Shown here in pieces: positions 13,292-23,717 of a stretch of 23,717 bases of DNA. The DNA is from a virus. The stretch lies in IMG/VR virus record IMGVR_UViG_3300022902_000077. One strand, given 5' to 3'. The notes beneath the pieces were generated by a model. That model saw only the letters and a list, made by a program, of their open reading frames with translations. It did no database searches and was not told the origin of the DNA. A program made the position numbers and the translations under genes. The first letter of the stretch is position 1; each line of letters begins with the position of its first letter.

Positions 13292-13299
13292 TATTTATA
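13292..13299 (-). promoter_or_regulatory. T4 late promoter TATAAATA upstream of gp22
   Basis: Exact consensus, intergenic, 43 nt before the gp22 start. Confidence 0.8.
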
Positions 13300-14799: not shown

Positions 14800-14807
14800 T
14801 ATTTATA
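14800..14807 (-). promoter_or_regulatory. T4 late promoter TATAAATA
   Basis: Exact consensus between the portal stop and the gp67-like start. Confidence 0.8.
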
Positions 14808-18095: not shown

Positions 18096-18103
18096 TATTT
18101 ATA
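18096..18103 (-). promoter_or_regulatory. T4 late promoter TATAAATA upstream of the gp19 cluster
   Basis: Exact consensus between gp18 and the first gp19. Confidence 0.8.
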
Positions 18104-20477: not shown

Positions 20478-20489
20478 TATTTATAAATA
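20478..20489. promoter_or_regulatory. Palindromic TATTTATAAATA: late-promoter motif on both strands
   Basis: Perfect 12-bp palindrome giving TATAAATA on - (20485-20478, towards gp18) and on + (20482-20489, towards the endonuclease). Confidence 0.75.
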
Positions 20490-20606: not shown

Positions 20607-21386
20607 ATGTCTAATAATATATATCATTACACCTATATCATTACAAATACAAAAAACCAAATGAAATATATTGGTGTACGGAGTTGTAGTTGTCCACCAA
20701 AAAATGATGAATATATGGGTTCTTCTAAAGTACTCAATGAAGTAATGGAGATATCACATGAACATTTTACAAAAACTATTATTGATACTTTTTCAACTAG
20801 AGCAGAAGCAAATATTAGTGAACATCAACTGCACAAAAAATATAATGTCGCACAAAATCCAGAGTTCTATAATCTTTGTAATGCCCCTATGGGATTTTGG
20901 AACAAGGGCATGAAAAAGAACGAAACCCCGGCCGAAAAACGTGAAAAAGCATTAAAACGTTTCAATTCCAAAGTTATTAAAACCAGTAATTGCCACGAAT
21001 GGAACGCTTCCAAACAAAAACAAGGTTATGGGATGTTCTCTTATGATGGAAAATCCAAACCAGCTCATCGATTTGCTTATCTTCTTCACAAAGGAGACAT
21101 CGCTGAAAATATGGTGGTTCACCAAACTTGTGAAAATAATAGTTGTGTAAATCCAGACCATCTTGTTTTACAAACTAAAAGTCAAAATAAAAAAAATTAC
21201 AACTCTACTCATGTCAGTAAAGAGATGGTAGAAAAAAGTAGCGTTAAATTTCTTTATCGTCTTCGTAGTGTTAGACCAGAATTGGAAAAAGAAATTGATG
21301 CATTACTGTTGTTACTTGTTACTGAAAAGATGAAAGATGATGATGACTTTGGTTTTGAAGAAATAAAGAAAGAAAATTATCTCTAA
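20607..21386 (+). mobile_element. Free-standing homing endonuclease gene: Seg-like GIY-YIG domain fused to an HNH/His-Cys (His-Me finger) domain
   Basis: YTYIITN...YIG...YMGSS...E...FYN at the N-terminus; CHEW...GYG...AHRFAY...G.I...V..TCENNSCVNPDHL...T..QN at the C-terminus; only gene on the + strand, between gp17 and gp18. Confidence 0.88.
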
Positions 21387-23717
21387 TAATATTCTCTCTG
21401 CCATTCTTGTCCAGCTGGTTGCCACACGTTATCATCGCCAGGGATTGAATGTTCATCTGGATCATGTCCATCTTCAATAAACCCAAAGGGCACCATTTCT
21501 TCTTCTATCATTTTCATTTGCTCGGAAAACATTTTTTCTCTTATATCTTGGTCTGTGAGTTCTCTGAAGTACCTCTGTTGAACTAACCAAGAAAAGAGAA
21601 CACAACACATCACCAAATCATCATGAGTTCCATCGTCTGCTTCCCACGATGTACTTTTTCCAATAAACGTTGTCAACTCACTTATTGTATCAAAATCTTC
21701 TATGATTAAATTGTCTCTCTCTATCATGTCTTTGAGAGTTGCACAACCAATTCGTTTTACTTGTTTAGTGGTACGGATTCCCATTGATACATTTTTAGAA
21801 AAACCTCCACCAATCTGTTGACCATTTCTACCGTGCATCGTGACCATCATCATATTTTCGTATTCCATATCATGATAAAGTATGTCAGCTACTTGTTGTC
21901 CTATGTCGTTTACTTCCACTAAAACAAATGCTTCGTTGTATTTCTGAGCAGCTGTAAAAATAACATTAGGATATAACATTGGTGAAATATCATTTTTTCG
22001 GTACTTTGCGACTTGACGGTAAGGTTGTTTCGTTACATCAAACAAAGAAAATGCAGAGTAATCTAATCCCACGCCTCTAGCAACATCACACACCATTACA
22101 TAAGTATGTCCCAATATCGGTTCTTGGTAAACATCCAATCCACCTTGTTGATAAACTGGTGTTTTGTAAGCTAACGAAAGAAGTTTCTCTGTAGAAATAA
22201 GTGTGTTAGAACTACCTAAGAACGAACATTCAAACTCAGACTGAAACTGCCGTTCCGAAGTATTCCGTATCGTTTTCTCTTTCCATTTTTCATCTCTGCC
22301 TGGAACTTGTGACCAATGAACTGAAATGGGGGAATAATCATTGTTTTTTTCTTCGGCATCTGTCCACAATTTGTAAAACATATTCATGCCGTTTGGAGTA
22401 GATACTATGAATACTTTTGTGGTTTGACCAGAAGAAATAGTAGGATAAACCGAACTGAAAAACTCTTCGGAAATATTGGAAGGCACAAATGCAAATTCAT
22501 CAAGAAATATGCAATTTGATACTTCTAAGTCATTTGCATAAAAGGAATGTACATCTTCAACGTGTAACAAATCATATACATCACAATTATTAGAATTTTT
22601 AACCTCAACAACGTCACAAAACTGATTATCTAATGTTCTTATTTTAGATTTTAATGTAACATCCTTAGCTGGTATAAACCCATTTTTGGTAGATATTTTA
22701 TGATCTGGCGTACACTTGATGCTATTGTTATCTGTTCGTATTTGTAGTGTTTTTTGATTTACACTTTTACTGATTCCATAAAACCTTTTCCATCCACCAC
22801 TCGTATATACTTCCCATCTACCAACTTCATTCCCTTGTTCCAAGGCCCGCCCTGAGTTTTGATCCGTCTTTTGGCCGATTCGCTCATTCGTTTTTTTGAC
22901 TCTTCTGATCGCTTCATACCACGATGTTTTTCGGCCGTCTTGCGTATTTTTTCTGGATTCTTGTTGATTTTCTCCATATGTTCTATGGTTTTTTTCACCC
23001 CCGTCAAAGCTTTGGATATTTTTTCTCCAAACCCCAAAGGCTTCTTCACACCCAACAGCTTCCCCTTCATGGTTTTTGACTGCTTCAATTTTTGTTCTTT
23101 TGGTATAGTTTTTCCTTTGTGAGAGTTTCCAATCTTTCTTTTTGTTTCTTCTGAATGTTTCGTCCCTGTTTGTATAATTCTCCGAGCTTGGGAAAATTCC
23201 AAAATTGACTGCCGCCGTTGATGTTCCGTGAGTTTCACCAAAACCCCCTGCCTGCCCTGGCACATTAGAAAATACGCGCACGACATTTTTGCTTTGGGCA
23301 TTCCCGATAGAAATTTTGGAAGTAGATGGTGTGCTATCAAATGCTCTTTGATTGTCAATTTCACTATATTGGTTATTTGGTTTCCGCCATTTAGAGATTT
23401 TGGTATTATGTGGTGTTTTTCTGATACGAGCTCTATGTCTAATGTTCTCAAAAGTGCTTTCTTCATCAGAGAAAAGTACCAATTCTTGTATTTGTTGTTT
23501 ATCATCTCCATACTCATATTTATAAGTATTCATTTCTCTGGATGAATTAGAATAAAAATCTGATATAGAAGTCTTGATTGTTTTATTATTAAAATTATCC
23601 TTTAATAACAGAGTAGAGCTACCAGATATGCAATTAAATGAACTTCCCCGAACAGCTGAACCAGAAGTCGCGGATGCAAGAATCTTTGAGCCATTTTCTA
23701 GCTCAATATTTCCCTTG
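21383..23717 (-). CDS. gp17: Terminase large subunit gp17 precursor (intein-containing; 5' end off-window)
   Basis: The frame of track ORF 21383..23533 stays open to the right edge: ...KGNIELENGSKILASATSGSAVRGSSFN|intein|CIFLDEFAF (Walker B), IVSTPNG, DVARG..LDYS, HDDLVM. Confidence 0.96.
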   Translation of the reverse strand, partial: KGNIELENGSKILASATSGSAVRGSSFNCISGSSTLLLKDNFNNKTIKTSISDFYSNSSREMNTYKYEYGDDKQQIQELVLFSDEESTFENIRHRARIRKTPHNTKISKWRKPNNQYSEIDNQRAFDSTPSTSKISIGNAQSKNVVRVFSNVPGQAGGFGETHGTSTAAVNFGIFPSSENYTNRDETFRRNKKKDWKLSQRKNYTKRTKIEAVKNHEGEAVGCEEAFGVWRKNIQSFDGGEKNHRTYGENQQESRKNTQDGRKTSWYEAIRRVKKTNERIGQKTDQNSGRALEQGNEVGRWEVYTSGGWKRFYGISKSVNQKTLQIRTDNNSIKCTPDHKISTKNGFIPAKDVTLKSKIRTLDNQFCDVVEVKNSNNCDVYDLLHVEDVHSFYANDLEVSNCIFLDEFAFVPSNISEEFFSSVYPTISSGQTTKVFIVSTPNGMNMFYKLWTDAEEKNNDYSPISVHWSQVPGRDEKWKEKTIRNTSERQFQSEFECSFLGSSNTLISTEKLLSLAYKTPVYQQGGLDVYQEPILGHTYVMVCDVARGVGLDYSAFSLFDVTKQPYRQVAKYRKNDISPMLYPNVIFTAAQKYNEAFVLVEVNDIGQQVADILYHDMEYENMMMVTMHGRNGQQIGGGFSKNVSMGIRTTKQVKRIGCATLKDMIERDNLIIEDFDTISELTTFIGKSTSWEADDGTHDDLVMCCVLFSWLVQQRYFRELTDQDIREKMFSEQMKMIEEEMVPFGFIEDGHDPDEHSIPGDDNVWQPAGQEWQREYY
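22759..23517 (-). CDS. HNH homing endonuclease with NUMOD3 repeats, nested in the +1 frame of the intein
   Basis: NNKY..WY..., EKHHIIPKS.NGGN...NIV.LT.KEH..AH.LL (phage HNH), then NUMOD3-like KHSEETKRKIGNSHKGK and KRSEESKKRMSESAK. Likely real start at 23505 (MINNKY). Confidence 0.9.
   Translation of the reverse strand: MSMEMINNKYKNWYFSLMKKALLRTLDIELVSEKHHIIPKSLNGGNQITNIVKLTIKEHLIAHHLLPKFLSGMPKAKMSCAYFLMCQGRQGVLVKLTEHQRRQSILEFSQARRIIQTGTKHSEETKRKIGNSHKGKTIPKEQKLKQSKTMKGKLLGVKKPLGFGEKISKALTGVKKTIEHMEKINKNPEKIRKTAEKHRGMKRSEESKKRMSESAKRRIKTQGGPWNKGMKLVDGKYIRVVDGKGFMESVKV
23517..23524 (-). promoter_or_regulatory. T4 late promoter TATAAATA inside the intein coding sequence, upstream of the nested HNH
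   Basis: Exact consensus formed by the intein-frame codons TAT AAA TAT; HNH ATGs follow at 23517, 23511 and 23505. Confidence 0.65.

Follow-up and report, generated by a model that had tools for sequence, protein, structure and literature searches.

A homing-endonuclease gene nested in the +1 frame of a probable terminase intein in T4-like phages

How can an essential packaging gene stay open across a second, complete gene that lies on the same strand and one base out of phase with it? The question is raised by a 23,717-nt stretch of viral DNA (IMG/VR record IMGVR_UViG_3300022902_000077; the whole stretch is called the window here), which carries the structural module of a T4-like phage, with the genes for the large terminase subunit (TerL), tail sheath, tail tube, portal, scaffold and major head protein all on the minus strand. 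The TerL (gp17) frame starts at the window edge and has no stop from 23716 to its TAG at 21385-21383 (-), while an HNH open reading frame (ORF) of 252 aa, shifted +1 relative to the TerL/intein frame, runs from an ATG at 23517 to a TAA at 22761-22759 (-). An earlier, sequence-only reading of this DNA had described both an open gp17 frame from the window edge to 21383 and a complete HNH plus NUMOD3 ORF on the same strand at 22759..23517, shifted by one base and with its own start and stop, and we find both as described. The third frame contains 29 stops across the HNH/intein overlap. The explanation that we consider very probable is a mobile class-1 intein in the TerL gene of a T4-like phage, with an HNH/NUMOD3 gene of the free-standing type nested +1 in a loop of its Hint domain, which is read through, excised with the intein and moved with it as a unit. 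The locus is laid out as follows.

23633..23716 (-): TerL (gp17) N-extein fragment, ending ...RGSSFN; truncated by the window edge; aligns without gaps to the intein-less S-MbCM6 TerL.
22514..23632 (-): putative complete intein, 373 aa, from Cys1 (CISGSS...) to ...EVSN, then Cys+1; assigned from invariant residues, conceptual excision and the Hint fold.
23540..23632 (-): Hint N part (intein residues 1-31), made up of block A and a helix; AlphaFold2 (AF2) pLDDT (predicted score in the local distance difference test) 76-92; intein-frame position 3 the most variable (0.50).
22817..23539 (-): intein-frame loop, 241 aa, reading through the HNH gene; pLDDT 25-40; no domain match; polar.
22759..23517 (-): HNH + NUMOD3 homing-endonuclease ORF, 252 aa plus TAA; assigned from phrog_655, NUMOD3 and AF2; intact in 18 related loci.
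23517..23524 (-): TATAAATA, a motif resembling T4-type late promoters, in the intein codons TAT AAA TAT; an ATG (23511) lies 5 nt downstream; putative function.
22514..22816 (-): Hint C part, 101 aa, with blocks B, F and G; pLDDT 84-95; supported by Foldseek; position 3 the most variable (0.51).
21383..22513 (-): TerL C-extein from Cys+1, with Walker B (CIFLDEFA), nuclease domain and stop; Terminase_6N + Terminase_6C (Pfam) and similarity to the S-MbCM6 TerL.

An HNH codon that begins with AA, AG or GA, called a risky codon here, produces a stop in the intein frame whenever the codon before it ends in T. The window HNH contains 75 Lys, Asn, Glu and Asp residues, 44 of them Lys, exactly matching the approximate hand counts of the sequence-only reading (about 75 and about 44), and seven AGN codons bring the number of risky codons to 82. 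None of these 82 codons is preceded by T, while T precedes 40 of the 170 non-risky positions in the same gene and 592 of the 1815 risky codons (33%) in the window's other genes. When the synonymous codons of the HNH gene are permuted among themselves, the mean is 11.3 stops and the minimum 3, and stop-free permutations are absent (0/20000); resampling the HNH codons from the codon usage of the window gives a mean of 26.6 stops with a minimum of 11. From the counts of T before codons, the probability of 0 of 82 is about 2e-10 to 1e-14. The earlier claim that a frame without a single stop is improbable by chance is upheld by the codon-frequency comparison and by the shuffles, which never gave zero stops. 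The absence of T-ending codons before AA-, AG- or GA-starting codons would arise because TerL is essential, so that HNH codon choices creating stops in its frame are eliminated, and the open TerL frame across the HNH gene is under clear selection against stops. Removal at the RNA level, by an intron or a translational bypass, was considered and rejected, because neither needs a stop-free frame.

Queries for the scan of IMG/VR were the HNH protein, an alignment of HNH sequences and the C part of the Hint domain. The scan found 18 further loci with both frames intact, that is, homologs with the same dual frame as envisaged in the sequence-only reading. In these loci, where the identity of the HNH protein to that of the window is as low as 43%, the HNH ORF has 224-267 aa and lies +1 within an open TerL frame, and the intein has 351-389 aa and occupies the same TerL site. 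When nine loci are pooled codon by codon, T precedes 0/780 risky codons, compared with 439/1430 (31%) at non-risky positions. Because both frames are open in 19 loci and none of the 780 risky codons follows a T, a sequencing artefact is ruled out and both frames have been under long-term selection; an assembly or frameshift artefact is likewise ruled out by the independence of the 19 loci. More distant, free-standing HNH relatives returned by the same scan (n=74) have 14-73 stops in the corresponding frame, and these natural controls, together with the two shuffle nulls, rule out a chance origin of the stop-free frame. A single-sequence scan using the intein frame gave no match, a metagenome scan returned only a duplicate of L003, and a word-indexed protein search with the loop frame returned two proteins, a number that is not a measure of abundance. 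Two side observations concern additional inteins in such terminases: P0002 is a 1143-aa TerL with a related dual-coded loop plus a LAGLIDADG_3 Pfam domain, probably representing two different inteins, and the N-terminal part of the TerL frame of L008/L111 has an apparent second intein in the Walker A P-loop, where it reads ...NGILSHN followed by SITT and relatives read GKTTT.

The two frames differ in the kind of constraint that they carry. Pairwise differences in the overlap at HNH codon positions 1/2/3 are 0.36/0.31/0.54, and amino-acid identity there is 53% in the HNH frame versus 32% in the intein frame, so that the amino-acid constraint lies in the HNH frame. Position 3 of the intein frame is the most variable in the flanking Hint parts (0.50-0.51) and the least variable inside the overlap (0.25), indicating that the intein frame in the overlap is constrained only to stay open. 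The structure predictions follow the same division. In the AF2 model of the intein frame, residues 1-30 and 262-373 have pLDDT 76-95, and residues 31-261 have pLDDT 25-40; the loop has a grand average of hydropathy (GRAVY) of -1.39, 72% of its residues are polar or charged, and the intein-frame reading of the overlap has no Pfam or PHROG match. The lack of a recognisable domain in the intein-frame product, noted in the sequence-only reading, is therefore confirmed by the searches, the low pLDDT and the polar composition. In the HNH frame, residues 1-115 have pLDDT 78-96 and the model is helical through the NUMOD3 repeats. The first ~18 codons of the Hint C part overlap the HNH tail, and HNH residues 227-252, the tail overlapping the resumed Hint strands, have pLDDT <50. 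In these models, each stretch of DNA is predicted to encode a folded protein in only one frame.

Judged by its sequence features, the element that contains the loop is a class-1 intein (Hint) located just before TerL Walker B, and it would be expected to splice. Intein residues C1, T308, H311, D354 and N373 are invariant in the 19 sequences, and so is Cys+1. Block B reads TPDH at 22700-22711 (T308, H311), and blocks F/G read ...VYDLL..HSFYAND.EVSN, after which Cys+1 opens Walker B (CIFLDEFA). When the intein is removed conceptually, the TerL of Synechococcus phage S-MbCM6, which has no intein, aligns to the product without gaps at ...SFN followed by (C/V)IFLDEFA, with 59% identity (237/403) of the conceptually spliced protein. 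Foldseek with the intein model returns 62 matches at E <= 0.001, and those listed are inteins or related Hint domains, among them the gp41-1 intein (6qaz, E 6e-8) and the Cat atypical split intein (6dsl, TM-score (TMt) 0.77, root-mean-square deviation (rmsd) 2.1). Sequence matches in the PDB are the Spl DnaX mini-intein (E 2.7e-6) and NrdJ-1, and the Pfam intein models give no match on the window intein. Pfam identifies Terminase_6N and Terminase_6C on the long frame, and the closest match of the TerL C-extein in a sequence search is cyanophage gp17. The insert begins after intein residue 31 and precedes block B, and thus lies between blocks A and B, not at the canonical endonuclease site. The sequence-only reading was right about a contiguous intein, but the canonical position between blocks B and F, by reference to which it located the endonuclease, does not apply, because TPDH comes after the HNH ORF.

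The product of the nested ORF has a computed mass of 28.9 kDa and shows the features of a homing endonuclease of the HNH/NUMOD3 type. PHROGs assigns the HNH frame to phrog_655 'homing endonuclease' (E 5e-31). NUMOD3 (PF07460) scores 22.7 bits against a cut-off of 20.4 in the window protein and matches all 15 of the 15 family members (best 1.5e-15), and the Pfam HNH model matches 14/15 members (best 6e-5). The HH..N..H motif is present and invariant in the family (H35, H36, N50, H59). The nearest cultured relatives, at ~33% identity, are annotated as free-standing homing endonucleases of T4-like phages, and among cultured phages at E <= 1e-10 there is no HNH relative other than such free-standing genes at ~33% identity. 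The protein would be expected to cleave DNA.

The distribution of sequence identity among the related loci bears on whether the intein and the nuclease move together. Two pairs of loci, L095/L097 and L089/L094, share 93-100% identity over the entire intein with its HNH gene, against 65-83% in the exteins. Identity steps at the intein boundaries, and on the 3' side it is also raised over a short tract. This step at the intein ends indicates that the intein and its nested HNH gene move together between divergent TerL alleles, as homing predicts, and the two apparently home as one unit. The nuclease has also been lost. L087 equals L089 for 104 nt, then has an exact 684-nt in-frame deletion and is near-identical thereafter, which leaves a 144-aa mini-intein. 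The deletion, placed by an ungapped prefix/suffix comparison, extends from just before TATAAATA to inside the GGPWNKG codons of the HNH gene, whose 3' end is kept, and in the mini-intein of L096 ~25 codons of the HNH 5' end are kept. L087:2372-2803 and L096:2324-2803 are thus mini-inteins with HNH remnants that represent two independent nuclease losses. These mini-inteins show that the loop is dispensable and that nuclease loss yields mini-inteins.

A different reading of the same data would make the HNH protein a passenger that has ceased to home, being domesticated or in decay (a packaging-associated HNH would be one example), within a vertically inherited intein. Such a role has a parallel in the terminase-assisting HNH proteins known from other phages (Kala et al., 2014, as cited in PMC4422536), and the deletion derivatives L087 and L096 show that the HNH gene can be lost. 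However, L087 has lost the gene, and the HNH protein is therefore not essential for packaging; the HNH frame is under purifying selection and intact in 19 loci; near-identical units of intein plus HNH occur in divergent TerL alleles; and the closest cultured relatives carry the annotation of free-standing homing endonucleases of T4-like phages. We regard the passenger reading as improbable.

The mobile, dual-coded intein that we prefer would work as follows. The HNH gene would sit in a surface loop of the Hint domain ~31 residues after Cys1, on the same strand and +1, and the ribosomes translating TerL would read through it to produce a polar, probably disordered loop of ~230-240 residues without a function of its own. 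The two Hint parts would then fold together, and excision of the whole 373-aa intein would give active TerL. The HNH protein would be made separately from its own conserved ATG, and it would probably cut TerL alleles that are free of the intein, into which the intein and the nested gene would be copied as one unit. The proposal of the sequence-only reading that an essential packaging gene is selected to read through the alternative frame of a parasite holds, and is supported by the 19 loci, the codon-position statistics, the structure predictions and the homing signature.

Several observations weigh against the dual-coded intein in this form. The penultimate intein residue of the window (22514-22519) is Ser and not His; Ser is also found in L006/L102 and Lys in L002/L098, and most relatives have His. 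For the window protein, the Pfam HNH model reaches 14 bits against a cut-off of 21.4, and Foldseek with the whole HNH model gives weak HNH-domain matches only. No good Shine-Dalgarno sequence precedes the window HNH ATGs at 23517, 23511 and 23505, and a leaderless HNH start from an internal late promoter is a conjecture. Finally, no free-standing relative (n=74) has fewer than 14 stops in the corresponding frame. The stop-free frame may have arisen by growth of the NUMOD3 repeat region under constraint; L002 lacks one repeat.

The start of the HNH gene shows conserved signals. All 19 loci keep a Met at 2-6 residues ahead of the NKY motif. In the window, an exact TATAAATA lies at 23524-23517 within intein codons, and the ATG at 23511 follows 5 nt downstream. 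Across the 19 loci, (T/C)ATAAATA lies <=5 nt from the ATG at the HNH start in 11, and several others have AAGGAG-like sites. The window contains five minus-strand copies of TATAAATA; of the four outside the intein, three precede late-gene starts by 26-61 nt. These other exact copies, identified by motif match, are the following.

13292-13299 (-): exact TATAAATA, upstream of a late structural gene start.
14800-14807 (-): exact TATAAATA, directly downstream of the portal gene.
18096-18103 (-): exact TATAAATA, upstream of a late structural gene start.
20478-20485 (-): exact TATAAATA, upstream of a late structural gene start.

The positions of the copies at 13292, 18096 and 20478 fit T4-type late promoters. 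With the geometry usual for such promoters, a transcript from the copy in the intein codons would start at or beside the ATG. The HNH transcript would thus probably start at TATAAATA and form an almost leaderless message, with a Shine-Dalgarno sequence taking this role in some relatives. Both the separate translation of the HNH protein and the use of the promoter are inferred.

Alternatively, the HNH protein might be made by a programmed +1 ribosomal frameshift, giving a fusion of the N-terminal part of TerL, the N-terminal intein fragment (IntN) and the HNH protein, with the majority of ribosomes reading on in the intein frame to produce the loop. The lack of a convincing Shine-Dalgarno sequence before ATG 23517, 23511 or 23505 would fit this reading, as would split relatives such as L112, in which IntN continues in frame into a GIY-YIG nuclease and which show that this family contains fusions of a nuclease and IntN. 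It is opposed by a stop in the HNH frame at 23532, five codons upstream of the ATG, and by the Met found at the same place in 19/19 loci, after (T/C)ATAAATA with a fixed 5-nt spacing or after AAGGAG-like sites; no slippery motif was seen either. We give the frameshift little credence, about as little as the passenger reading.

The same intein family occurs at the same TerL site in three forms, namely contiguous mini-inteins (132-163 aa), the dual-coded inteins and split inteins. The split forms are broken after ~35-60 residues, and some have a GIY-YIG nuclease fused in frame to IntN. In L112, L113, L115, L117, L118, L127 and L128 (at ~1450 in each locus), the N-extein and a block-A peptide of ~35 aa run stop-free into the GIY-YIG nuclease, and in split loci of the L112 type the C part has only 3-14 open codons upstream. 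In L116, L121/L123, L126 and L133, the IntN frame stops ~35-45 residues after Cys1, and these loci resemble the atypically split TerL inteins of the GOS/AceL type. A tree of the 101-aa Hint C part leaves 27 of 42 inner branches open and is too weak to order the three states, although it places the mini-inteins L087 and L088 among the dual-coded forms with good support. That TerL is joined by trans-splicing of two halves that are translated separately, in the manner of GOS-TerL and AceL-TerL, with an open frame that is irrelevant, an artefact or chance, is barely credible: the insert does lie where atypically split TerL inteins are broken, and split relatives do occur at the same TerL site (PMC2677866 for the known type), but read-through that is not needed would let stops accumulate as in the 74 free-standing relatives, against 0/780 in nine loci, and 19 independent assemblies exclude a sequencing artefact as the shuffles exclude chance.

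It is possible, although we lean against it, that the mini, dual-coded and split forms are a living evolutionary series at one hot-spot loop, in which the dual-coded form is a direct precursor of, or a stable alternative to, the natural split inteins of the GOS/AceL-TerL type, which protein engineers use, and in which TAT AAA TAT serves both as intein codons and as the late promoter of a leaderless nuclease mRNA. If so, a single change of A, G or C to T that is silent in the HNH frame would turn a cis-splicing terminase into a trans-splicing one.

The dual-coded intein provides an unusually clean natural case of two-frame selection, in which openness is the sole constraint on one frame and protein function constrains the other. 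The models also suggest that the Hint domain tolerates an unstructured insert of ~230 residues exactly where natural atypical split inteins break. The occurrence of mini, dual-coded and split versions at one terminase site makes the family useful for studies of split-intein origin and for engineering, and the locus is a warning for annotation, since nested nuclease genes inside terminase ORFs are routinely missed. A second selfish-nuclease gene adjoins the intein-bearing terminase: the gene at 20607-21386 (+) encodes a free-standing nuclease of 259 aa with a SegE-type GIY-YIG domain at its N terminus and an HNH_3 domain at its C terminus (Pfam, PHROGs), and it is convergent with TerL and overlaps the TerL stop by 4 nt.

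The sequence-only reading had put the locus forward as a new, third architecture of intein and endonuclease, and this claim does not survive comparison with the literature, which already holds a brucellaphage TerL case from 2015 (PMC4422536) and preprints from 2025-26. In brucellaphages of the Tb/Pr group, a putative intein-encoded HNH was reported out of frame inside the large terminase, and, as in the window, the central part of the large terminase gene is overlapped by an HNH gene in a different frame (PMC4422536). Unlike the phage of the window, these are podoviruses of Brucella, and that study contains no analysis of stop avoidance, insertion point or mobility (PMC4422536). Gosselin, Arsenault and Gogarten describe actinobacteriophage inteins, many of them in TerL, with the endonuclease in another frame or on the other strand, and they propose invasion by a free-standing endonuclease gene with ongoing transfer (bioRxiv 10.1101/2025.01.02.630785). 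An antisense LAGLIDADG case is credited there to Gorbalenya, 1998 (as cited in bioRxiv 10.1101/2025.01.02.630785), and a cyanobacterial dnaX intein with an out-of-frame endonuclease was described in 2026 (bioRxiv 10.64898/2026.09.14.751524). These non-canonical inteins share with the window a contiguous intein and an endonuclease encoded as a complete, overlapping and separate ORF. However, the endonuclease of the same-strand, out-of-frame case of Gosselin et al. is endonuclease VII-like and occupies the usual endonuclease region (blocks B-F), whereas that of the window is of the HNH/NUMOD3 type and lies between blocks A and B, and the window and its relatives are T4-like phages of uncultured aquatic viromes, not actinophages. 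A further parallel is the ShiLan-type insertion in a phage methylase, reported in 2025 (PMC11855218), in which a hidden HNH is encoded in an alternative frame within an insertion that is open in the host frame and whose host-frame product is predicted to be a tolerated loop. The ShiLan-type insertion lacks a splicing domain and is retained in the mature protein (PMC11855218), while the loop of the window would leave with the intein.

The closest known systems by host gene and insertion point are the GOS terminase locus (Dassa et al., 2009, PMC2677866) and GOS-TerL/AceL-TerL (PMC11766414), which, like the window, have a gp17-type TerL as the host gene. The break in GOS/AceL-TerL and the insert in the window both come just after motif N1/block A, where IntN has 25-37 aa and the insert follows residue 31, respectively, and the C part has 104-122 aa in GOS/AceL-TerL versus about 101-112 aa in the window (PMC2677866, PMC11766414). 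In both the atypically split TerL inteins and the window, the endonuclease gene runs with its 3' end into the beginning of the C part. The nuclease is HNH in the window versus GIY-YIG or Vsr-like in the atypically split TerL inteins, and the window intein has weak sequence similarity to the Cat consensus (E 0.12). Unlike the split TerL inteins, the window intein is encoded as a single polypeptide: IntN is not followed by a stop, and the C-terminal fragment (IntC) lacks a start of its own; the frame is also continuous in the 18 relatives. The locus therefore opens no new category, as the general layout is already known; what is specific to it is an HNH/NUMOD3 family in uncultured T4-like phages, an insertion at the atypical split point, and the coexistence of mini, dual-coded and split states.

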